A DNA stretch of 63,164 nucleotides, counting the filler, from Klebsormidium nitens (lineage: Eukaryota; Plantae; Klebsormidiophyceae), in the NCBI GenBank assembly GCA_000708835.1. It is 7 parts of 7 records of this genome, joined end to end, with 100 filler letters (N's around TTAATTAATTAA, not from the genome) between each part and the next. Parts side by side here need not be neighbours in the genome. Positions count along the whole stretch, not along the records: positions 14,720 to 37,873 come from DF237651.1; 6 more parts are not named here. One strand, given 5' to 3'. Each line of letters opens with the position of its first letter. Position 1 is the stretch's first letter. Below the pieces are notes generated by a model. That model saw only the letters and a program-made list of their open reading frames with translations, ran no database searches and was not told the DNA's origin. The position numbers were made by a program, and so were the translations under genes. Positions 7,620 to 50,690 of this stretch are shown in pieces.

Positions 7620-13540
<5,921 letters not shown>

Positions 13541-14550: not shown

Positions 14551-14719
14551 GTACCAGACGGTGCGCACCGCCAACATTGACACCAGATCGCCGGATAGCG
14601 CTCAGCCGAGCACGCCGCTNNNNNNNNNNNNNNNNNNNNNNNNNNNNNNNNNNNNNNNNNNNNTTAATTAATTAANNNNNNNNNNNNNNNNNNNNNNNNN
14701 NNNNNNNNNNNNNNNNNNN

Positions 14720-23247: not shown

Positions 23248-24537
23248 CTAAGTCTCTCCTACTCCTGAATTGTTCAGCCTAGGAGCATTCTGTACACCAT
23301 GTATACGAAGCGCAGCCTCGTCGTATGCTCGACCCGCTTCCTCGGCTGTCTCGAATGTTCCGAGATGCACCTTCATGCCTTGGTCTCTGATTTGGGCCAC
23401 CCACTTGTCTCCAACCTTCGAGCATCCGACTATTTCTGTGTCTCTCTCCTTCCTCTTCTTGTTCACCTGAGGGCCTGTCGACTGCGAATTCGTCGATCTG
23501 GGCGCGTAGCACAAGTTCTCAGCGCGGTTATCCTCGTTCTTCCAGTTCTTGTGATGTATGATCATGCCACTGTTCTCAGCTTCGTCCACCTCTTCCACTG
23601 TCTTCTTCTTCCTCATCACGTAGTCGCTCAGGTTCTGCTTCGTGCTGTTGAAATATACGTTTCCCCCGCGGGCACTGTTCGCGCTGAGTCCGGTCGCTTT
23701 GCCATCATCGTTGACCATCAGTTCCACGAATACGTCATCGTCTACCAGCACATCGATTGTCTGCTCGCGGGTGACTTTCGCCTTCAACACCGCTGCTCCC
23801 ATCTCGTTCCGCGAGATCACGAGGTTCTCTCTCTGAGTCCTGACGTACTCTGCCAGGGCTTTCTCGCACGCCTCCTCGGCCTCCGAGAAGGTTTCGTAGG
23901 TACCCTTGGCTAGAACCTGACCGTTCCTCTTCATATTGTGAATGAAGAACTTCTTCCCACTCGGCTTGATCGGGAATCGCTGCTGCTTTTTGATGCCCGA
24001 TTTTGCATCGATGTCTGCGAAACCCTCCGGCTCCTCGACGCCATTCAAGTGCGCCTGGTCTCCATATGCTCTCTTGCAGAGGTCGTACTTGTAGGCGGCC
24101 ATGGCTTCTTCTGGATAGTAACCCAAGACCTCGCCGTTCAAAGTCGCGCGCCATCTCCTCTCTGGCTTACCCTCCTTCATCTCGAAGACGCCCAGGTATG
24201 CAGAGGTTCCAGAAGCCTCCTTTTTCTTCATCGCGTGTGCAGCTGCAGGCGTGCAGATCTTCAAGTTCGATTTCGTGAGGTTGAGGTGATCGCCATCTAC
24301 GAAGGTTACCACGTCCGACCCCTTTGGCTGCTGTCCGATTACCATGTGACTCAATCTGGTGAAAGGGTCTTCCAGGGTCTTGGACTTGACCACATACTTG
24401 GAGCTCTTGTTTCCTTCTGTGGCATACCTCCAGCAGAAGGGCCTGACGCGGTCCTCGTCCTCCTTGTCCACGATTGCGTAGACAGACTCTTTACCATCCT
24501 TGACCTCGATGAGCGCCGTAGATGAGGAGCTTGCCAT
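23248..24537 (-). CDS. HNH endonuclease with AP2 DNA-binding domains
   Basis: HNH-like segments [16 protein letters not shown] and [16 protein letters not shown]; AP2 domains ([24 protein letters not shown]; [32 protein letters not shown]). Confidence 0.85.
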
Positions 24538-25627: not shown

Positions 25628-25718
25628 ATGAGTCACTGGCATGACTCAGATCTGAAACGGTGAATATTGTTTTTATTCAGCACGCAGTGCCCGTGCTGAG
25701 ATTTCGATGGATAACGAC

Positions 25719-27833
25719 TTAATTGGAGTAGGCGAGACCAGCCATTCCCGTTTCCGCCGCGGAGTGTTCCTCCGCGGACCGATCGTCCCTTGCGCTCGCT
25801 CCGGCTGACTAGGCCCTCACTGCGAACGGGTGGCTTTGCGACCTGTGACGTTGATCGTACCGCAGCTTCGTCGTAGCGCTTCGGTCGACCTAACAAGCGG
25901 ATCACCCATCGTCGAGACTCTCGCTCGCGCATCCGACGAACTTTTCCCATACCCAAGTGGTTGTCTTGGCCACGGTCCTCTCGCGAGGAGCCGCTTGGGG
26001 TCGTCGGCGTCAGGGCTTCCCTGCTACCAGCACACCTTGCAAACATATATTCACTAGCACATGGCCATCGGTCGGCTGTATAACCGGCGGGGGCAAAACG
26101 GCTTTTTCGCAGATAAGAGCCCGAATTATCTGCGCCGTGTGCTTTTTCGAGCAGCATTTTACTCATGATCCTCAAAATGTTAAAGTTAATGGCAATAATC
26201 TTGCACCTTGCGGCCACCATATTCGGCGGGAAGGTGAGATATAGGGTGGAATTATCGATGCGAGAGAAATTAGTTGATCCACTTGGTTGATGAGATGACG
26301 CCTCCAGCGAAAATGAGTACACGTAGACGTGCTTCTTGGGCACGCGAGGATGGTGCTGATATGGCTGCACCAACCTGTGATATGTGCCGGGCCTCTCGCT
26401 GTACCTGTCGTGCCCGTTCAGCATCAGCTTCGCACTCTGCACGTAGTCCACGCCTGCGACCTCGCCGAAATCGAAGATCATATTTCCGGTCTTGGAGTTG
26501 ACGGCTGCGGAGCTCTCTGGGGTCACTACCCAGATCAGCTCCTTCACGGGGTGGTTGAATGACAGCCGGATCTTCTGAGTGCTGGCCGAGATGCTGGCAG
26601 GGATCGATTCGTCACCCGTGAATTGTACCTGCTCCACGAGGAATTCGTGGGACGAGGAAGCGAACTTTCGGCGCTCATCCGTATCCAAATAGATATAATC
26701 GACGTAAAGAGAGCAATCGATCAGAGAAAGGGGTGCACCGTTGGAGGTAGGGGTCACCACGTTGATATCTGACCTGACCAGGGCTGCTGCCGGAGCCAGT
26801 TCTACATTAAGCTTAATTTCATGGTATTGCAGCGCGATAAGCGGAAGAGCGTTGCCAGGGAGCTTGTTGAACCAGAACTTGAGGGGGATATAATACGTGC
26901 GCTGGCCGGTCTGCGTATGGAGCTGCCCGCCCTCGTAGTTGTCCGCCTCGTTGTACTTGCCGATCATCTCCCGCAGTCCACCCTCCTTCTCGGCGGGGAC
27001 CGTGAGCTCGTCGTCGATCTCGTAGTAGGCATCAAAGTGCTTGTCGATGCGCTGACCGCCGATCTCGATTTCCACCGATTTAAGGAGGGCGTGGCCGACC
27101 GCATTTACGTACCTGACATAAGTGGAAGTGGAGCCTCCTACCGTGACCGTCTGATCCAGTGCAGGAAGCGTGACTTGCAACCACATATTCGTAATCAAAT
27201 CTCCATTTCGGCTGATATTGAACGTGGATTTACGATTTAAATCGCACGTGCCGTTTGATGTCTGCGCGATGGATTCCATAGCAAAGTTGGTATGCCTCCG
27301 GTAGACCAACCTGAAGAAAGTGATCTGAGGTGTCCCGGTAAGGTAGGCATCCTGAGCTCCGATAGCGACCAAAGAAAGCACTTCTATACAGCCCAGAGCA
27401 TTTCGCTGAGGGACGGACTATACCTTAAGGGTTCAATGCCGGTGGCTACCCGACTCCCCCCCAACTCCTCCTAGTCTCTGAACCGTCTTCCTCGCCCTGG
27501 CCGGAACGGGCGTAGGAAGCTTGGCTGCAGATCACCCAATCTCGAGCTGTTTTACCGTACGCGAGGCGATTAACCTGCTGCCTGCGGTCCGATCTCTCGG
27601 ACGAGGTGGTCGCGTCGAGCTTCAGGATGTCCCCGCAATTCGAAGTTGTCGCGGGATCCGGACGAGGGCCGTGTGCCCCCTAATCGATTTCCCACTAGCC
27701 AGTTTTATCGACGCGCTCGGACGGAGAGCGCGCCCCACGAGACTTACACCGTTTGCCCTCGAGAGTGGTCCGTGGAACTCGACCGAGGCGGCTGACTGTT
27801 GAGGACTGCTTAATTCGTTAATCCTCCTGACAT
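25719..27833 (-). CDS. mcp: NCLDV major capsid protein, 3 exons separated by two group I introns, 420 aa
   Basis: Exons 27833-27821 (ATGTCAGGAGGAT), 27380-26161 and 25748-25719 total 1263 nt (420 aa + stop). The protein starts [37 protein letters not shown] and ends QPSGSTNFSRID...NFNILRIMSGMAGLAYSN*, matching both canonical NCLDV MCP termini. Confidence 0.95.
25749..26160 (-). ncRNA. Group I intron (412 nt, no ORF of its own) before the last 9 codons of the MCP CDS
   Basis: The 5' exon ends ...AUGAGU and pairs with IGS GCUC (U-G); the intron ends ...CGGAAACG. R-like UCACAGGUCG and S-like AAGGGACGAUCG form P7 C(A)GGUCG/CGAUCG. P3 GGUGUGC/GCCACC; P9 hairpin CCGCGGAG-GAACA-CUCCGCGG. Removal restores ILRIMS|GMAGLAYSN*. 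Confidence 0.88.
27381..27820 (-). ncRNA. Group I intron (IC1-like, 440 nt, no ORF) after nt 13 of the MCP CDS
   Basis: The 5' exon ends in U and the intron ends in G. IGS AAGCAGUCCUC pairs with the 5' exon GAGGAU (U-G at the splice site) and with the 3' exon UGCUU (P10). P AAUUGCGGGGA, Q GAUCUGCAGCC, R UUCAGAGACUA, S AAGGUAUAGUCC; P3 CAACUUC/GGAGUUG. Confidence 0.92.
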
Positions 27834-30623: not shown

Positions 30624-31733
30624 ATGGAGCCCACTGGCGCGAAGCGAAAGCGACAGACGTACGAGCCACCCACCGAGCTGGGTCGGTACCTCCACCATCC
30701 CGTCCAAAAGGAGTACGTGGGCTACCCTGACGGAAGCATCTGGTCGAAGAAGAGTGGCGCTTTCATTCAGGGGAGCTTGAACGGCGAATACGTGCTGATA
30801 AATCTTGGGGACAAAAACGTTTACAGGCATAGATTCATCTTCGAGATCGCCAATCAACGAGTTATTCAACCCCTAATGCACGTCGACCATATCAACGCAG
30901 ACAAGACTGACAACTCTTGGACCAACCTTCAGGAATTGACGAGCCAGGCACACGCGATGAAAACATCTGCGGATAATCCCAAGCGTGGTGCGAAGTGTGG
31001 AGTGACTTTGGGCCAAAAACTTGTCGCCACACACATTGGCACTGGAGAAAAACTAAGTTTCAATTCCCAATGGCATGCAGCGAGGGAGCTGGGTCTTCAC
31101 CAAAGCAACATCGGCAAACAACTGCGAGGCAAGTTGAAACGAGTGGGGCAGTATACTTTCGAGGTGGCTTCTGCATACATGGATCAGCAGCGGGACCTTC
31201 CGGGGGAGCAGTGGGAGGACGTGCCGAAGGACCTCGCAGTCGAGTACGGCTTCCAGCCCGGCATCATGAAGGGGATCCGCATAAGCAATCTCGGACGCAT
31301 TCAAGACAAGATGGGGAGACGCACCTTTGGATTGGAGGTACCCTCGAAATTCCCTGGCGACTGCTACATGAGCACCTTCGTTGGTGGGCAAAAAAGACGC
31401 GTGACAGTCCACGTCCACGTCCACGTCCTATGTGCCTTGACTTTCGTCGGACGGCGTCCGAGTCCCACTCACACTGTTGATCACATCGACGGACGCAAGA
31501 AGAACAATGCCGCCTCCAATCTGAGGTGGTATACGCCGAACGAACAAGGACAGAATCAGAGGTCGAATCGGGCAGTGCACCAGCTGGACTCAGAGACTGG
31601 ACGCGTGCTTCGGACGTTCGCCACGATAGCAGAGGCCGCCCGAATCACAAAGTGCCCGAAAGCGGGTATAAATATGGTATGCTTGGGCACGAGGGCAAGA
31701 TCGGGCGGCTTTTCTTGGAAGTACGCGACTTAG
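30624..31733 (+). CDS. HNH homing endonuclease with two HNH_3 cores and NUMOD-type domains
   Basis: HVDHINADKTDNSWTNLQ and TVDHIDGRKKNNAASNLRW; NUMOD1-like C-terminus (AVHQLDSETGRVLRTFATIAEAARIT...GGFSWKY). Confidence 0.85.
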   Translation: MEPTGAKRKRQTYEPPTELGRYLHHPVQKEYVGYPDGSIWSKKSGAFIQGSLNGEYVLINLGDKNVYRHRFIFEIANQRVIQPLMHVDHINADKTDNSWTNLQELTSQAHAMKTSADNPKRGAKCGVTLGQKLVATHIGTGEKLSFNSQWHAARELGLHQSNIGKQLRGKLKRVGQYTFEVASAYMDQQRDLPGEQWEDVPKDLAVEYGFQPGIMKGIRISNLGRIQDKMGRRTFGLEVPSKFPGDCYMSTFVGGQKRRVTVHVHVHVLCALTFVGRRPSPTHTVDHIDGRKKNNAASNLRWYTPNEQGQNQRSNRAVHQLDSETGRVLRTFATIAEAARITKCPKAGINMVCLGTRARSGGFSWKYAT

Positions 31734-31773: not shown

Positions 31774-32496
31774 ATGACAGGGTCGTCGGTGCAAGGTCAG
31801 GGTATCATCAGCTGCAACATCGCGAGCGGCGAGAAGAAGAGATTTGCTTCTCAGTCTCAGGCAGCAAAGGAGTTGGGGTTATTTCAGAGCAATATCTCCC
31901 TGTGCTTGAAAGGGAAACTCGCAAGTACAGAAGGGTATACTTTTGAGAAGGATGCAGATTATGAAAATGACCAGGCAGACCTGCCTGGAGAGGAGTGGAG
32001 GAAGATACCGGAAGACGTAGGGATAGCTCAGGGCTTCTCGTCCAAGATGCTGGCCGGCATGCAATTCAGCAGCGCGGGGCGGGTGCGAGACAAGCGCGGG
32101 CGCAGGACCTTCGGCACCGACCTGGGTTCGCACAAGGTGGTGAAGGTGGCCGACGGGCCCCTGAGCAAGAAAGCACGCGTCCACGTCCTCTGCACACTAG
32201 CATTCCACGGCCCTCCCCCCGGCAAGGATCACATAGTCCAGCACATCAACGGCGAGAACAGCGACAATAGCCGGGAGAACCTGACCTGGGTCCACAAGAC
32301 TGCACCAAGCGATAGGCGTGGGACGGTCAAGGCGGTGCAGAAGATAGATCGTGAGAGCGGGGCCGTCCTGGCGACCTATCAGAGCATCATGGAGGCAGCA
32401 GAAGCGAATAATATAGCCCACAGGAATCAGATTTCGGACGTCATTGCAGGCAGGAAGGCCACAGCAGGTGGCTACGGCTGGCAGTTTGCAGATTGA
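31774..32496 (+). CDS. HNH endonuclease, tandem paralog of the C-terminal two-thirds of 30624-31733
   Basis: FASQSQAAKELGL, DLPGEEWRKIP, VHVLCTLAFHGPPP..HIVQHINGENSDNSRENLTW, NUMOD1-like tail. Confidence 0.8.
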   Translation: MTGSSVQGQGIISCNIASGEKKRFASQSQAAKELGLFQSNISLCLKGKLASTEGYTFEKDADYENDQADLPGEEWRKIPEDVGIAQGFSSKMLAGMQFSSAGRVRDKRGRRTFGTDLGSHKVVKVADGPLSKKARVHVLCTLAFHGPPPGKDHIVQHINGENSDNSRENLTWVHKTAPSDRRGTVKAVQKIDRESGAVLATYQSIMEAAEANNIAHRNQISDVIAGRKATAGGYGWQFAD

Positions 32497-32511
32497 CTAT
32501 GGGTTATTCGC

Positions 32512-33304
32512 CTACTCCAACGAGGGCACGAGATCCAGATTGTGGAATCTTTCCGAGGTATCTTCTTCGTAGTCCGCGAACGATTGCAATATGCTACGAC
32601 CGATGTGCTCTGCTAGCTTCGGAGGGACTGCGTTGCCGATCTGCGTGTAGACTGCTATACGTGGACCTTTCCACAAATAAGTCGTAGGAAAGGACTGAAG
32701 AGCGGCACACTCTTGTTCCGTCAACATCCTGCAAGATCCATCATCATACAAGACCAAAGCTTCAGCCCCGCGATTCTTTAAATATCCAGCCCTCACGGTC
32801 CTCGAGGGTCGTTCAATATCCACAAACATCGCATAGTGGGCATTTTGCTCGTGTTTTCTCATGTAATATGCGGTCTTCTCCGGCCTCATCCAATAAAAAG
32901 CGGCTATGTCGCTTTTGTCTTTCAGTACACTTCCGATCGTCTGAGGTAAGTCCTCTGTGGAAGGCGAGGGAAAATTGAACGTCATGACGGGATGATGGGC
33001 AACGATGAAGAGGCGTTTTCTGCTCTGAGGGATGCCATAATCGAGGGCAGTCAAATATGTATGTTTCACCACATATGAAGAATGTTCCAAACTTGTGCAC
33101 AAGTTCTGCAAGTGTTTACCACCGTCTTTCGTAGCAAACCCCGTCACGTTCTCCATGACAACCATTTTGGCATCGCACCATGCAGCTATTCGTACGACGT
33201 ACTCATACAGATCATCGCGTGCATCTCCACGGCACCTTCTACCTACCATCGAAAAACTCTGACAAGGAGGGCTCGCAACGACGACATCAATCACTGTGCC
33301 TTTA
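32512..33304 (-). pseudogene. C5 DNA cytosine methyltransferase, C-terminal part (motifs IV-X), interrupted by a transposon
   Basis: DVVVASPPCQSFS (IV), VVMENVTG (VI), PQSRKRLFIV (VIII), RMLTEQECAALQSFP (IX), YTQIGNAVPP (X). The ORF-track start MGENGN lies in the transposon TIR. Confidence 0.9.
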
Positions 33305-33470
33305 TTACCATTTTCGCCCAAACTGTCGCCCGTACCGGGCGCTTATTCGGACGGAAAATGAATAATAATACCGGATTAGGTCCATACGAGTACGGACTGG
33401 TACCGGCTATCCGCGAACCGCCGGGTTATAGGTTCGAAAGCCTCCGGTATCCGCGAATAATCCTCAAACT
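33305..33470 (-). ncRNA. Putative Fanzor omegaRNA scaffold (guide expected in the flanking MTase sequence)
   Basis: ~165 nt between the Fanzor stop and the transposon end, with several stem-loops (GTCCGTAC-TC-GTATGGAC; TACCGG/CCGGTA) and a TTCGCGGATA-(G)CCGG direct repeat. The position matches TnpB/Fanzor guide-RNA loci. Boundaries are inferred. Confidence 0.6.
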
Positions 33471-35298
33471 AGCGGCAGAACTCAGCCGGCCGAACTCTTC
33501 CTCCCAGCCTGCTCTGGAGCAGCCTCAAGATGTTCCGGGCGGCGTTCACGTCGCGGTTCACCGTCATGCCATAACAGCCACTGTTTCTGCAGTGGAGCAC
33601 ACTGTGAACTTTTACGGTCTTCACCACCCCATCCTTGCACCGCTTCTCCGAGTACTGGTTGTGCAGCTGCGTCTTGCAGTCGAAGTGGAGCTTGCTCGTC
33701 CTAAATTCGTCTACCGAGACCACCCTGCAGTGCTTGCGGAGCTCCCGCTCCAGCCGCTTCACGGGCCCAGAGGGTGATCCTCTTATAATCCCGGCAGCGT
33801 CCTTGTTGGACCAGTCTCCGAACCCCACGACTGTCCTCTTGCCCATGCGCTTGGTGATACCCTTGCAGATCTCGTGCAACTTCTTCTGTGCATAGATGTA
33901 CCGCTTGGACTTGAGACCCCTGAACCCCTTCCTCATGTGGAAGCTCAGGAGCATATCCAGGCGGGGAAGCATGAAGCGCACGTAGTCTAGCAGCTTGGAG
34001 CTCTCAGGCGTTTTCTTGCTGGGCATGTTGCGGATCGCTTCGAGGACCTCAGGACTCTGCTCGTACCAGTGCCTGATCCTTGCGTTGCTGAGCTTGTACT
34101 TGGCATCGTGGTAGAATTCTCGCGTCGAGCAAGACAACTTCTCGCCTTGCTCGTTCATCATGACGAACAAATCCCGCCTCCTCCCCGGGTCAAGGCCCCA
34201 CAGCTCCTCGTCACCGGTGAGATCAGGAAGCACCCCCTCTCCAGCGGAAGACCTTGGTTTGGGCTTCCTCAACACCATGCACACGGCCTTTCCATCCGTG
34301 AGGATCTCACCCGCAAACTTTCTGTTGCACGTCTCAAACTTCTCGAGGTTGAACAGCTGTCTCCAGTAGTCGTCTGCCACCTTCCTGAACTCCGGTCCAA
34401 ATGCTGGCAGCTTGGCGCCTCCTCTCTTCAACAAGCCATATAGGCCATTCGTGCACATCTTTAGGTGACTGCACTCGAAGCCGCTCTTGGTGGGAAGGAG
34501 GCTAAAGAGTCTCAGCTGCTTGCCCTTCTTCAACTCAGCTTCCGACAGAGGATGGTGCGACTCCATGTAGCGCAGGAACATGAATTGCATGGGCATGAGA
34601 AGGTGAGGGGTGGAGTCTGCTCGTCCGGTCGTGGCTTTTGGAAGCATTGCACGGTACTCCAGGACCAACGGGTCATCACCGTTGTACTCCTCTGTCAGCA
34701 TGTGTCTCATCTTTGCATAGCATGCTGAGCCATCGAGCGAGTACTTGTGCTTTAGATATCGCTTGAAGCGCCGGTAGAAGTTCGTAGCAACAGAGTTTCG
34801 GGTGCAAGTCGCCATCTGGAGGCTTGCATTCTGGTACCAGCCGGAGGCGAGGTTCTTGCTGTCCGGTGGCACATACTCAGCGGGGCGTGATGATACATAG
34901 AGTTCCACCGTCTCCCTGAAGAAGAGGTCTTTGATTGCGCTCTTCTGCCTCCCGGTGACACTGACGGCTGACAAGCATCCATAGAAGAAGGACTGATCGA
35001 GAGGTGGTACTTCTCTATCGAGCTCACACATGCGCAATACATGCAGGTTGGCGAGAAGGTAGGCCTCGCAGATGGCCTTGTTCACTTCCTTGAGCACACT
35101 CTCGAGAGGGAGGGCCTTCGCAGCCTCCTTGCAGAAGCTGTTCCAGCTGGTCTTTACGACTGTACACTCGGTCTCCCTGTTCCTCTGAGCACGGAGTTTG
35201 ACATCTTCGCGAGTTCGAGTGGGGTCCCTGAAGAGCTTGCATATGTAGCGCAGACATTCGTGCTCGAGAGCGATGTCTGGGGGCTTCTTAGGCGGCAT
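33469..35298 (-). CDS. Fanzor: Fanzor1 (eukaryotic TnpB-like RNA-guided RuvC nuclease), 609 aa, intact
   Basis: ATG at 35298 (MPPKKPP...). RuvC-I LWGLDPGRR, Fanzor1-type VVGFGDWS, shifted catalytic Glu in VVSVDEFRTSK, Zn finger (HFDC...LHCRNSGC), RuvC-III NRDVNAARNI. Confidence 0.92.
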   Translation of the reverse strand: MPPKKPPDIALEHECLRYICKLFRDPTRTREDVKLRAQRNRETECTVVKTSWNSFCKEAAKALPLESVLKEVNKAICEAYLLANLHVLRMCELDREVPPLDQSFFYGCLSAVSVTGRQKSAIKDLFFRETVELYVSSRPAEYVPPDSKNLASGWYQNASLQMATCTRNSVATNFYRRFKRYLKHKYSLDGSACYAKMRHMLTEEYNGDDPLVLEYRAMLPKATTGRADSTPHLLMPMQFMFLRYMESHHPLSEAELKKGKQLRLFSLLPTKSGFECSHLKMCTNGLYGLLKRGGAKLPAFGPEFRKVADDYWRQLFNLEKFETCNRKFAGEILTDGKAVCMVLRKPKPRSSAGEGVLPDLTGDEELWGLDPGRRRDLFVMMNEQGEKLSCSTREFYHDAKYKLSNARIRHWYEQSPEVLEAIRNMPSKKTPESSKLLDYVRFMLPRLDMLLSFHMRKGFRGLKSKRYIYAQKKLHEICKGITKRMGKRTVVGFGDWSNKDAAGIIRGSPSGPVKRLERELRKHCRVVSVDEFRTSKLHFDCKTQLHNQYSEKRCKDGVVKTVKVHSVLHCRNSGCYGMTVNRDVNAARNILRLLQSRLGGRVRPAEFCR

Positions 35299-35345
35299 GA
35301 ACGCCACCTTATAGACTACTTTTAAGAAAAAAAGTCTCGGAGATT

Positions 35346-36248
35346 TTACGCGCCTGGGCCTAGGACTCTCTGGAACAGTCTGGAGCACACGGCGGGGGTG
35401 AGCTTCTGCAAGCCATCCTCTAGAGCGGCCCTGAGGTCTGCCTCGTTCCTGGGCGCTACCCCACTGATGTGAGTCCTGAGGATATTGAAGCAGAGCTCTA
35501 CCGGGTTGAGATGTGGTGCATAGGGAGGCAGGTACTCCAGGTCGATTGCAAGTTCGCCTGCCGCTTCTGCAATCGTAGGCAGCCCTCTGCGCTTGAGAGC
35601 GTTGGTGCTCTTGTGGATGGCAGCGTTGTCCAGGACGATCTTGGAGCCCATAGGCAGCTCTTGTAGGAACCTCAGAAACCTGACAGCGTCCACAGAGCCC
35701 TGGTAAAGGTTCCACTTGACCACCCCAGTGGAGCTGATGCAGAGGAGGAGTGAGAACTTCTTGCCCCTAGGGCCAGGTCTCCTTACCACTGCTCTGGACC
35801 CACGCTGGCTCCATGCATAGCCGCGGATATGATTCATGAAGAAGCCACACTCGTCCAGAGAGAGGACATGCGGTCCCAGATCAGCTTGGATGTCATTCAG
35901 GAAAGCCTGACCCCTAGCCTCGTTGAACTCGCAGTAGGCCTTGGTTGCTTTCTTGAAGGAGAGAGTGGAAACTGCAACTCGCACATTGTGTTCGTCTCTC
36001 AGGAACTGTGCAGCTTGCTCGAGTGTGGTGGTTGGATTCTGCTGCATCTATGCTGCCAGGCTGATCATTACCAGTGGAGAGAGCTTTCGGAGGTGCGCAG
36101 TGTTGCGCTCCCGGTCTTGCAGTCTAGGGCTTCTGATCCACCTCTGGATGGTGCGCTTGGACCTCTGCAGAGATTGGCCTATAGCATCATCATCCATGCC
36201 AGACGCCAACATCTGCCTGAGGAAGGCACGCTTCTCGCTCATCTTCAT
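35346..36248 (-). pseudogene. IS630/Tc1-like DDE transposase with an in-frame TAG at 36048-36050
   Basis: HTH N-terminus (MKMSEKRAFLRQ...IGQSLQRSKRTIQRW), then VLSLDECGF, IVLDNAAIHK, YLPPYAPHLNPVE. It reads LAA*MQQ where the second copy reads LATYMQQ. Confidence 0.88.
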
Positions 36249-36500
36249 GGTGGCATGTGGTGAAAGTGACAAGCTCATGCTTGAAGGGATGGTACATGAG
36301 TAGGTATAGCTTACAGGGATACACTTGGTCATATAGTGTACCGTTATGTCGTAATGATTTGATTAATACGAAAAAAATAGGTCCCAACCTCGCGGTTTCG
36401 CGCGACACTTTTGGCAAAAAAAGGTTAAAAAAGGTGGCAGAAAGTTTGGAACCGGTGAGAGGCGCCATTCCCTTCCGAACCAACCAAAAAATACTGCGAG

Positions 36501-37037
36501 ATGGCGGCAGATGAGGCGAGCAAGAAACAAAGACTGGCGCAGCTGAAAACAGAGTGGCAGGAGTATGCGAAGGAGATACCTGCAGAGGGGAGCAGTGACA
36601 CCACTGAAGACATCTGCATGCGCCTTATGGCATCTGTCATTCTGGCAGAAAACCCAGAAGCGAGAGAAACTGACATATTGCGCCACTTCTTTGACCCCAC
36701 CCTCGGTCTTCGGGTTACGGCCTATGTAGAGGACTACGTGCTCTGGTTCCAATATCGTTTTGGGTACATTGCTGATGCCTACAAGAACGAAGACAAAAAG
36801 GACTTCAAGAGATTCATGAGCTACAAGAGGCACAATCCATATGTAAGCGAGCGTGGTCGGAAGGTAAATCTCAACAATGGCCATTTCTTGACACAGCCAG
36901 GTGAACAGAACCAGAGGTTTGGAGCAGACTTTATCGTAGGAGACGTTGGGTTAGACTTTATTTGGGAGTTTACGGATTACCTGCTCAAGGCAGAGTATCC
37001 AAACAAGCCAGGTACCAAGACTCCTAGTACTAAATGA
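36501..37037 (+). CDS. Hypothetical cargo protein (178 aa) inside the composite transposon
   Basis: Clean intronless ORF (MAADEASKKQRL...) between the inner transposon end (~36428) and the second partial transposase copy; no family recognised. Confidence 0.6.
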   Translation: MAADEASKKQRLAQLKTEWQEYAKEIPAEGSSDTTEDICMRLMASVILAENPEARETDILRHFFDPTLGLRVTAYVEDYVLWFQYRFGYIADAYKNEDKKDFKRFMSYKRHNPYVSERGRKVNLNNGHFLTQPGEQNQRFGADFIVGDVGLDFIWEFTDYLLKAEYPNKPGTKTPSTK

Positions 37038-37171
37038 GGGGTTGTTCGTTAGTTGAAACAATGCTTCTCATTGAACATGAGCTAGAGCTGCATGAGTGGT
37101 CTTTACTTCCAATCTTCAACCTGCTTCACCTGCTCTTAGCTGCGCAGAGACAGCACATGTTCGCAGCTGCT

Positions 37172-37596
37172 TCAAGTGACAGCAAGTCGCACACTGTTAT
37201 CAACTCCCAGTTCCTGTGCAGCTTGCTGGCGTGTGGTGGTTGGATTTTGCTGCATGTATGTTGCCAGGCTGATCATTAATAGTGGAGAGAGCCTTCTGAG
37301 GTAGGTAGTATTCAGCCCCTGGTCTTGCAGTCTAGGGCTTCTGATCCACCTCTGGAAGGTGCGCTTGGACCTCTGCAGAGATTGGCCTATAGCATCATCA
37401 TATACGCCAGAGCCAGCAGCTGCCTGAGGCTTTTTGCTCATCTTCATGGTGGCACGCCATACATACTCGGGTATGTATGGCTTGCAAGGATGCACATGGT
37501 CATATCACGACACTTTTATGATGTAATATAGGTTTGATGAATTAAAATATGTCCCAACCGGGCGGTTTTGCGCGACACTTCCGACAAAAACCGTAA
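37172..37596 (-). pseudogene. Diverged second copy of the transposon 5' end and transposase N-terminus
   Basis: MKMSKKP...DDAIGQSLQRSKRTFQRWIRSPRLQD...MQQNPTTT parallels 36248-35990. The end sequence GTCCCAACC..GCGGTTT.GCGCGACACTT occurs at both ~36381 and ~37547. Confidence 0.8.
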
Positions 37597-37740
37597 TAAT
37601 GATCGATTGTAGATAATCTGCCGTAAGAGTACGAACGTCACAGCAAAAAGTTGTCTTGGCTCCATGATTGGCCTCGTATGTTGCGAGTGCATGGGTGTCA
37701 ATGTCAATACCGACCGAATGGACCAAACCGGCTTTTACAG
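37597..37740 (-). pseudogene. C5 methyltransferase N-terminal part (motifs II-III)
   Basis: KAGLVHSVGIDIDTHALATYEANHGAKTTFCCDVRTLTADYLQSI joins in frame to KGTVIDVVVASPPC when 33305-37596 plus one TA is removed. Motif I (FxGxG) was not found upstream. Confidence 0.8.
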
Positions 37741-38232
37741 TTTGTCCAGAATAAAATGGCAGACGAGAAATCGGCGTCCGAAGGTCTCGTCCGAGAGCTT
37801 GGGAGCATCGGAGCATCCGAAAGGCATATCACAGCGGAAGCATCCGAAAGCAAGTATCCGAAACAAGTATCCGNNNNNNNNNNNNNNNNNNNNNNNNNNN
37901 NNNNNNNNNNNNNNNNNTTAATTAATTAANNNNNNNNNNNNNNNNNNNNNNNNNNNNNNNNNNNNNNNNNNNNCCGCTTATGTTGATTGCAGGGGCGATA
38001 GATAGGAGCACAGTGTCCTCGTCACTCAGATAAAAGGTGTTCTCTGATGGAATTCTCTTTATTTCGTAGACGAGCCAGTCAAGTGTATTCTGATGCTGAC
38101 CGTGAACCGCCAGCACGAGACGGCTCGTGCTGCGGGCCATCATGCCCAGGGTATCTTGAATGAGATCAAACATTTGAGAGCGGTTCATAAATGTGCTTAT
38201 ATAGTCAACTATTTTCCTAGCTCTGACGTAGG

Positions 38233-47836: not shown

Positions 47837-50690
47837 ACAGGGGGTTATGTTGGCGATGCACGTCAGTTTTTCAGGGACACTATGATTCGGGGCTATGGTC
47901 TACGTACCCCCATTCAGTCCTATTGGGATACCTGGAACAAGTTGTCCCAGGGGTCCAAGAGTGTGGACGACTACAACATCGAGTTCGAACAGGCTCTGGT
48001 GAACCTGCGAGCTGAGATTACGGATGAGGCTGTTAAGATCGAGAGGTATCGATCTGGCCTACAGGCCGATGTTAGGGAGATGTGTCGTACGTCGCCCACT
48101 GGTCAGCGTTGGGGCACTCTGAATGAGTTGGCTGAGTATGCCACTCTTATGTGGCCCGTTGTGGAAACGCGTTTGGCCAAGCGGAAGACTTCCCAGCCTG
48201 CCAAGTCGGTGGCTGGAAAGCGTAAGGCTACTGGGGGTGGTTCTGGACGTTCCCAAGGCCAAATTGTCGGCAGCTCTTACTGATGAGCAGTATGCCAACG
48301 ATATGGAGAACCGCCTCTGCCATATCTGCCACAAGCCAGGCCATATTGCACGTGACTGCGAGGAAGGTCCTCCCAGTGGAAGCAAGAACAAGGGCCAAGG
48401 CCAGAAGAAGGGCAAGAAGTAGGAGAAGGGTTTTCAGAAAGACTAGCCAACGTAGGACAGTTGCCTAGTCAGGAGAACTCTGTATTGGATCTGACAGAAC
48501 AGGACTTCCTGAATATTTCAAATCTTACTGGTCGTATCTTTGAAATGGGAGTTCAACGTTCAGAAGATTCCATCTCTACAGATGTATGTCCTAGCTCAGT
48601 CTTTCTGTCATCGTCTATGGCAAGCAAGCATGTATGGATAAATGCGAGTACAGCTAAGGATGTTACTGAACGTCTTAGGCACATGCACTCTGCATTAGTT
48701 GAGAACCCTACTTCTACGTCTGCTTGTGTGTTAGTACGTGATAGCATGCCGGTTGCATTGCCATTACTGAAGGATTTTCGTGTTGTGCTGACAGTTCCAA
48801 AAGGTGGGTTGGTTCGACAGTTGCAGTCAGATAACATGTGGGCTGTTGTGCGAAGTTCTGAGAAATTGCGAGTTCTATATCTTGCTTCTGTTGCTGACAA
48901 AGTGTCTGTTGAAGCAGGTTTGCTGACAAGCAAGATTCTCGCAGCTTCACGAAAGGGCTCAGCTAAGTTGCCACGAATGATGTTTTCCGGTAAGGCAGCT
49001 GCTCAGAAGGCCAACATCTTGTTTGATTCTGGAGCATCAATGAATTTTGTCTCTGCCAAATTTGCTAAGCAGACATGCATAACGGTAAGTCCTATTGCTC
49101 AGAAAGTTCGTCTGGCAGATGACGTTGTTGGCNNNNNNNNNNNNNNNNNNNNNNNNNNNNNNNNNNNNNNNNNNNNNNNNNNNNNNNNNNNNNNNNNNNN
49201 NNNNNNNNNNNNNNNNNNNNNNNNNNNNNNNNNNNNNNNNNNNNNNNNNNNNNNNNNNNNNNNNNNNNNNNNNNNNNNNNNNNNNNNNNNNNNNNNNNNN
49301 NNNNNNNNNNNNNNNNNNNNNNNNNNNNNNNNNNNNNNNNNNNNNNNNNNNNNNNNNNNNNNNNNNNNNNNNNNNNNNNNNNNNNNNNNNNNNNNNNNNN
49401 NNNNNNNNNNNNNNNNNNNNNNNNNNNNNNTGAAGCAGGTTTGCTAACAAGCAAGATTCTCGCAGCTTCACGAAAGGGCTCAGCTAAGTTGCCACGAATG
49501 ATGTTTTCTGGTAAGGCAGCTGCTCAGAAGGCCAACATCTTGTTTGATTCTGGAGCGTCAGTGAATTTTGTCTCTGCCAAATTTGCTAAGCAGACAGGCA
49601 TAACGGTAAGTTCTACTGCTCAGAAAGTTCGTCTGGCAGATGACGTTGTTGGCGAGATCCTGGGTGAGGCAACTGTGTATGTGCAGTTAGGAGCGTTTCA
49701 CAAGCCTGTGAAATGCTATGTCATGAACCTGTTGTTCGAGGTTGATCTTATCTTGGGAGATGAGTTCATGACTAGATATAACTGCATTCTGCATTATGGC
49801 AAAAGTGTTGTCATGATCCAGAAAGGGAAAAGACATTTGACTGTGCGAAGTCCTCCTCTTCTTCGTTCACGTTCTGACGATGATGAGAAGTCTAATCCCG
49901 ATGTGTTGTCACATTCGCAGCTGAAGCGGCTGATGAAGCGTGGCGCAAGCGTGTACCTGGCATCATTGAAGCCGATTGGTCCAGACGCTGCCACGTGTTC
50001 TACTGCTGCCACGTGTGCTACCAGTACCGTAGCAGGCTCTGGAATTGGGGGCAACCAAGATCATGCCACTACTCTGTCTGAGCCAACCGTACAACCAGCC
50101 CAACCGAGCGACCCAGTCTCAAGTGAGAAGAAATGGGTTTCTGATTTGCTGTCTGAGTTTTCTGACGTGTTTCAGGATCCTCTTCCGGTTGGTCTGCCTC
50201 CTGAACGTGCAGAAGGTCATAGTATTCCTGCTGAGCCAGGGCATCCACCTACGTTTCGGCAGATGTACCGTTTATCTCCGTTGGAATATCGTGAGTTGGA
50301 AAAATAGGTCACTGCGTTTTTACAAGCGGGAATTCTGGAAGTGCCTCAGTCCCCGTATGGTGCGCCTGTGTTGTTTGTCCCTAAGCCTAACGGGCGTGGT
50401 CTTCGTCTGTGTGTTGATTATCGAGCGTTAAACTCGATAACTGTGAAGAATCGCTGTACGATTCCTCGCATTGACGATCTGTTGGATGCTATAAGTGGTT
50501 CGCAGTATTTCACCTCATTGGATCTGACGTCAGGTTATCATCAGATTCTGATTTCTGAGGAGGATCGTCCGAAGACAGCGTTTCGTACGCCTTTCGGGCA
50601 CTTTCAGTTTAAGGTGTTGATTGAGAGTCTGACGAATGCTCCGGCGACGTTTCAGACTGTTATGAATTCTGTAACGATTACGACTGGTTA
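47837..50690 (+). mobile_element. Degenerate Ty3/gypsy retrotransposon (gag, protease, partial RT)
   Basis: Gag (SVDDYNIEF...YRSGL) and knuckle CHICHKPGHIARDC; protease ILFDSGAS; RT LRLCVDYRALN...YFTSLDLTSGYHQI...KTAFRTPFGHFQF...NAPATFQ. Frameshifts and premature stops; truncated before the YxDD motif. Confidence 0.92.

Follow-up and report, generated by a model that had tools for sequence, protein, structure and literature searches.

Transposons that combine a mariner-type transposase with Fanzor1 have been described from algal giant viruses, with TA duplications, terminal inverted repeats (TIRs), passenger open reading frames (ORFs) and a chimeric make-up (PMC3627910). What we report of this and the other publications cited here is drawn from parts of their texts. 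In Chlamydomonas reinhardtii, Fanzor families A–C of an endogenous giant virus likewise combine Fanzor1 with an IS630-Tc1-Mariner transposase, make TA duplications, include non-autonomous forms and exchange with the host genome (bioRxiv 10.1101/2024.09.03.611062). In Klebsormidium nitens, the Fanzor KnFNuc has a measured target-adjacent motif (TAM) of TTA (PMC10530073), and the role of the 5′ target-site duplication (TSD) as part of the TAM has been reviewed together with restorative homing (PMC13565253). Giant-virus genes have also been reported in Klebsormidium (PMC5294986; PMC11244446). Here we describe an IS630/Tc1-mariner element with a Fanzor1 gene that interrupts a C5 cytosine methyltransferase (methylase) gene of K. 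nitens (assembly GCA_000708835.1). It lies on record DF237651.1 in a stretch of 63,164 nucleotides, the window, that joins seven parts of this genome. The element is composite and non-autonomous, carries a passenger ORF between its two left ends, and probably arrived as one unit. It is not a new system, since Fanzor-mariner elements in giant viruses and endogenous copies of them have already been described.

The element shares with those of PMC3627910 the mariner-type transposase with Fanzor1, the TA duplications, the TIRs and the extra ORFs. In the part of that account available, the passengers are nucleases and methylases 3′ of the transposase, whereas here two left ends enclose an uncharacterised passenger 5′ of the transposase, and the methylase serves as target rather than as cargo. 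The C. reinhardtii copies are more than 99% identical and are expressed. By contrast, the K. nitens copies are diverged and the transposase is broken, and a composite with two left ends is not mentioned in the portion of the C. reinhardtii preprint consulted (bioRxiv 10.1101/2024.09.03.611062). KnFNuc and the other K. nitens Fanzor1 copies are similar in that they are Fanzor1, are multicopy, with five copies in that study, and have a TAM, TTA, that equals the 5′ flank at our locus (PMC10530073). One paralogue, KFL_006580070 (P0155, 736 aa), is 80% identical to the Fanzor described here and has the start and length of entry Fanzor50_0626 in Data S1 of that study, where at least two entries belong to this subfamily. 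The available part of the KnFNuc account does not describe a transposase, ends, a target duplication or a passenger. As a comparison outside the algae, the RuvC half of SpuFz1 (PDB 8GKH) aligns with residues 308–609 (E 3.9e-9) and its TAM, CATA, ends in TA as TTA does (PMC10432273), but SpuFz1 is distant in sequence, comes from a fungal host and differs at the first zinc ligand, which is His here (HFDC). Our literature search found no account of this locus, although subscription papers, Repbase and the supplement of PMC10530073 may contain one. To what the consulted parts of the K. nitens Fanzor accounts hold, our analysis adds the exact ends, a T-TA-A target and the type of the partner transposase.

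Table 1. Features of the Fanzor element and its surroundings (positions along the window)
Feature	Position	Strand	Basis or remark
Giant-virus major capsid protein	25633–27279	-	PF04451 and PF16903; PBCV-1 capsid proteins
C5 cytosine methyltransferase, C-terminal part (motif IV SPPC onward)	32512–33304	-	263 codons, no stop
Predicted Fanzor guide (coding bases of the methylase directly beyond the TA)	33283–33302	-	Length assumed; analogy with published Fanzor1 RNA layout
TA target duplication, right-end side	33303–33304		Direct reading; agreement of other copies ends after 33302 or 33301
IS630/Tc1-mariner element, composite	33305–37596 (~4.3 kb)		Passenger on + strand, other genes on - strand
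Right end (TIR)	33305–33329	-	Predicted 3′ strand of last RNA stem
Predicted Fanzor RNA scaffold	33305–33520	-	5′ limit chosen, not measured
Fanzor1 ORF, 609 aa, open	33469–35298	-	SpuFz1 match, E 3.9e-9
IS630/Tc1-type DDE transposase, broken	35346–36248	-	HTH_23 and DDE_3
Inner left end	36402–36428	-	21 matches in 27 columns to right end
Passenger ORF, 178 aa	36501–37037	+	Small uncharacterised family
Frameshifted 5′ fragment of second, related transposase	37179–37444 (approximate)	-	201 of 233 bases match 35971–36203
Outer left end, abutting methylase	37572–37596	-	18/25 against right end; agreement of X1 and X5 copies extends through 37599
TA target duplication, outer-left side	37597–37598		Direct reading; adjoins middle methylase part
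Methylase, middle part (homologue residues ~19–65)	37597–37737 (including TA duplication)	-	Homologue alignment
End of second, multicopy repeat, after a TA	37738–37873	+	Runs into assembly gap

The original prediction held that TA stands at both ends and that the inverted repeats match at 18 of 25 positions, and both statements were confirmed by direct reading. An 18/25 match is weak by itself: when all 25-mers of the window were compared on both strands, an unrelated one at 11227 (+ strand) scored as high. The match carries weight because it coincides with the break in the methylase gene. Methylase homologues align to 37738–37598 and then resume from 33303 to 32575, and neither part of the gene contains a stop codon. 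Only two choices of boundary, 33305/37596 and 33308/37593, retain the methylase reading frame, and they give spacings of 34 and 36 residues, respectively, between NHG and SPPC across the break. This spacing could be parsed in 16 of 25 homologues (nine were unparsed), where it ranges from 25 to 37; it is 34 in five of the 16, including the three closest homologues, and 36 in none. The TA duplication is thus deduced from homologue spacing together with other copies, and the imperfect TIRs are at the same time boundaries of other copies. Between 33000 and 38000, the core of the ends, GCGACA, was found nowhere besides the outer left, inner left and right ends. These data support the predicted exact ends and the in-frame rejoining of the methylase parts.

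Parts of the stretch were contained in nine of 24 runs, and the contigs of five (X1, X3, X4, X5 and X6) were compared. Copies of the right end with unlike flanks occurred on at least five contigs in X1, at least 5 + 3 in X3, at least four in X5 and at least two in X6, and these flanks agreed with their consensus at 0.48–0.63 (24 of 197 loose-end rows). Copies of the left end in X1 and X5 match through the TAA at 37599. Because the copies share bases 33302/33301 and 37599 beyond the ends, the target is T-TA-A. Comparing the ends and flanks of other copies had been proposed together with the prediction, and the outcome was the same ends, differing flanks and this target. Its 5′ half equals the published TTA TAM, so that the target preference matches the TAM. 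A simple form of the element was found in X5, where 36355 is joined to 37540. In X1 and X3, two contigs each carry an internal deletion form in which 33334 is joined to 35641; this form has lost Fanzor with its RNA and retains 30 right-end bases. The differences of X6 on 32000–37873 are mostly C>T (159 places) and G>A (198 places), a pattern expected of DNA that was chemically converted or in which methyl-C has decayed.

On the minus strand, the element reads as outer left end, transposase fragment, about 140 unmatched bases, passenger (on the opposite strand), inner left end, transposase, Fanzor and right end. The inner left end differs from the right end by two one-base insertions, and its outside flank is AAAAGG (+ strand), without TA. 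Compared without gaps it matches the right end at 17/25, and with them at 21 of 27 columns, as against 18/25 for the outer left end, so of the two left ends it is no less similar to the right end. No other X1 contig carries the inner type, whereas the outer type has further copies. The transposase scores above the cut-off for PF13358; its truncated piece reaches 96 bits with NF033545 (E 2.5e-27; cut-off 100). Its catalytic triad is D132, D207 and E251. The frame is not intact: codon 67 is a TAG stop (36050–36048) where the outer fragment has TAC. It also likely has an in-frame deletion of about 27 bp before the catalytic domain, as judged from 157 letters here against 184 in a paralogue and from a 10-residue gap relative to the transposase of L018. 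That locus (L018:463–3258), on an AT-rich metagenome contig, shows the same gene order: its IS630 transposase is intact and immediately precedes a related Fanzor (28%). In our transposase (35346–36047), 43 residues separate D207 from E251, nine more than in L018. The outer transposase fragment has an 8-base gap near its start, and 37038–37178 resembles nothing in the element above shuffle level. The element had been called complete, but with its two left ends and a stop codon in its transposase it is a composite that is not autonomous.

The closest relative of the passenger, at 76% identity, is a transcript protein of Klebsormidium subtile, and there are nine relatives among 1.84 billion representatives. 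It had no match in Pfam or NCBIfam. Its predicted model has a pLDDT (predicted local distance difference test) of 87.9, and no fold match was obtained at E ≤ 0.001 in the PDB or viral libraries; this does not amount to a new fold. The best hit, YkuJ (Z 6.5, root-mean-square deviation 3.5, 79 aligned), was within background and was rejected.

The element also differs from its surroundings in CpG content. The ratio of observed to expected CpG was 0.69 in the element (208 against 302 expected) and 1.01 in the adjacent 18.6 kb of viral DNA. At codon boundaries, C before G was avoided in the three ORFs of the element (0.70, 0.44 and 0.28; pooled p 3.6e-9), and the corresponding ratio was 0.85–1.73 in 10 of 11 flanking genes. 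From this depletion relative to the flanks we infer that the element with its passenger spent longer in CpG-methylated DNA than its neighbours did, and that the donor was likely methylated. Viral-origin genes of K. nitens are reported to be enriched for methylation, and CHG is named as the silencing mark in streptophytes (PMC12344493). The prediction placed the insertion in the viral lineage or soon after endogenization. This timing is unsupported; the CpG contrast leans toward arrival after, or apart from, the integration of this virus. A sharp CpG step at the ends of an element is a cheap marker by which recent insertions in endogenous giant viruses could be told from long-established ones.

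Fanzor1 proteins have RuvC residues D-E-D with the glutamate about six residues ahead of the zinc finger (PMC13565253). Here these residues are D370, E531 and D583, and six residues separate E531 from HFDC. SpuFz1 is the sole solved match, and the ORF is 80% identical to the paralogue that matches the Data S1 entry. The element therefore holds both a Fanzor1 ORF and an IS630-type transposase, as predicted, and its Fanzor is likely, by sequence, an RNA-guided nuclease. The nearest named relatives are K. nitens proteins, with paralogues in this species at 80–82% identity; seven close paralogues are 80–94% identical over long stretches, and P0003 is 73% identical. One gene model, KFL_007020080 (P0154), consists of 227 transposase residues followed by the last 571 Fanzor residues, letter for letter. 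The splice fusion that this model implies (predicted GT-AG intron, 35185–35366) is a probable prediction artefact, and paralogous models begin at Fanzor's own Met. Some K. nitens models in the Fanzor clusters (P0163, P0167, P0172 and P0042) are labelled as thymidylate synthase or kinase, which hints that Fanzor copies adjoin viral-type genes.

The scaffold of Fanzor1 RNA is reported to include TIR and TSD (PMC10711439). In a single-sequence prediction, the scaffold of Table 1 folds with a minimum free energy of −87.9 kcal/mol (z −2.92; two of 200 shuffles were equally stable). The right end and the outer left end differ at seven bases; in this prediction each of the seven is paired in the right end, and substituting the left-end base would break five of these pairs, which fits the published inclusion of TIR and TSD in the RNA. 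No TTA-plus-guide site was found in the window, and L001/L010 gave only a 4-of-15 mismatch. Searches with the single Fanzor gave no close relatives in viral or metagenome contigs, and searches with a Fanzor alignment gave seven viral and 15 metagenome loci at 25–61% identity. An IS630 transposase adjoins Fanzor in one of these 22 loci (L018), and none of the 22 has a match to the passenger or the methylase.

We consider it probable that the element arrived as one composite unit, moved by transposase from another copy. At the donor site, in DNA that was likely CpG-methylated, a simple element of about 3.1 kb (inner left end, transposase, Fanzor and right end) would have lain downstream of a truncated relative, about 1.2 kb from the left end of the latter, and the passenger would have occupied the interval. 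The left end of the simple element would have been damaged, and for this reason a transposase acting in trans would have used the right end together with the left end upstream, taking the passenger along. At the new site, a transcript through the right end and the TA is predicted to pick up about 15–20 bases of the methylase as a guide. Fanzor would then cut TTA plus guide, which is the uninterrupted methylase allele, and so promote homing. Alternatively, the composite could have formed at its present site. The first insertion would have been a simple element bearing the outer left end, to which gap repair or recombination with another copy later added the inner transposase, the inner end and the passenger. 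The existence in X5 of a simple form whose left end is of the outer type, the deletion forms in X1 and X3, which show that such elements rearrange, and the unmatched bases 37038–37178, as expected of a non-homologous junction, are all in keeping with this. We nevertheless think it rather unlikely, since both a homologous and a non-homologous junction would be needed, the outer end is no better a partner for the right end than the inner one, and the passenger is depleted in CpG like the element and unlike the local viral genes, although a distant donor would explain this depletion under either reading. The ends might also lie three bases inward (33308 and 37593), with a family that targets a 10-base palindrome. 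That would leave TA on both sides and the methylase in frame, and the bases concerned are common to other copies. The spacing of 36 that it implies occurs in no parsed homologue, as opposed to 34 in the three closest, and the data are fitted more simply by a duplication of 2 bases and a preference for 4, which makes inward ends very improbable. Least probable of all is that several repeat copies were misassembled here. In its favour, the body of Fanzor occurs in several copies, gaps are frequent in the window and none of the contigs runs through the element from end to end. However, separate X1 contigs cover 32000–33328, 35349–36142, 36164–37350 and 37372–37792 with 0 differences at depth 15–19, and a misassembly would hardly leave two gene halves at the right spacing. 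The third of these contigs covers the inner end, the passenger and the outer transposase fragment; the fourth bridges the outer left junction, as does an X4 contig (37321–37792, 1 difference).

Several observations weigh against arrival as one unit followed by homing, or against the evidence for it. No donor locus was seen in the compared contigs, and the empty allele (33304 joined to 37597) was not among the 15 of 16 joints listed. The family yielded only partial paralogue contigs, and no intact transposase was present in 172 fetched proteins besides the locus-identical model. X1, X3 and X4 come from one sample, perhaps the source of the window itself. At the right junction, contigs with 0 differences extend only 24 letters into the element, which is below our bridging rule of 31 letters. 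With regard to CpG, the flanking HNH gene at 31774–32496 is likewise poor (0.70), avoidance could be a long-standing codon trait shared by this family of elements, and the element shows no CHG depletion. An extra Arg directly after D370 is carried by none of the 48 parsed homologues (top 50), and because of it this Fanzor copy may be inactive. Moreover, we infer the place of KnFNuc in this subfamily rather than reading it from its sequence. More generally, Fanzor-IS630 elements with a damaged left end might be rescued by a neighbour's left end, take passengers out of older methylated DNA and into giant viruses that have only recently integrated, and re-aim Fanzor at the gene broken on landing, which here would create an RNA-guided drive against the virus's own methylase. 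We regard this wider scheme as doubtful. The two-left-end layout does provide a simple route by which such elements could acquire passenger genes.

The methylase has a second interruption. Its C-terminal part matches PF00145 (E 7.7e-43), scores above the cut-off for TIGR00675 and has 25 homologues at 38–54% identity. Methylase homology ends at 37738, which corresponds to homologue residue 18–20, where the second repeat begins. In X1, the summed contig depth of this repeat is 238 against 15; loose ends occur before 37730 and 37735, and its junction with the methylase is bridged by X1 and X4 contigs. The repeat, which has short CATCCGAA-like subterminal repeats, is separated from the Fanzor element by 139 bases and opens with CAGT, similar to Tc1 ends. 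A six-frame search of the window for motif I, the cofactor-binding motif, gave chance matches only, and this motif may lie behind the second repeat, inside the assembly gap. The gene thus has neither a motif I in the window nor an unbroken frame. As far as its sequence goes, the methylase is inactive regardless of the Fanzor element, being also cut off at 37738. The prediction that the element knocked out the viral methyltransferase does not hold in this form. Its removal leaves no whole gene, and the knockout is not attributable to it alone because of the second repeat and the absence of motif I from the window. Among viral contigs, the relatives of the methylase are only 24–38% identical (best 80 of 526), so its viral origin rests on context.

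This context is a gap-free stretch (14720–37873) bounded by assembly gaps. The major capsid protein encoded on it, a hallmark gene of Nucleocytoviricota, has PBCV-1 MCPv1 as its best solved match (E 7.7e-92) and bears out the predicted giant-virus setting. Scanning 30 proteins also identified SNF2 helicase, Bro-N, RING, SET and HNH genes on the stretch. A named K. nitens gene model is identical to the Fanzor locus. The surroundings are likely a giant virus integrated in the alga, and searches of viral contigs with the transposase, the passenger alignment and the capsid protein gave no close relatives. Three free-standing HNH endonuclease genes lie near the capsid gene (23248–24537, 30624–31733 and 31774–32496), the latter two in tandem beside the methylase. 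Elsewhere in the window, 100-base spacers, each a stop word in six frames with N's on both sides, occur at 14620, 37874, 47737, 50973, 56487 and 60443 between stretches that need not be neighbours, and at 48545–50307 two ORFs for retrotransposon-type aspartyl proteases flank a 298-base gap.

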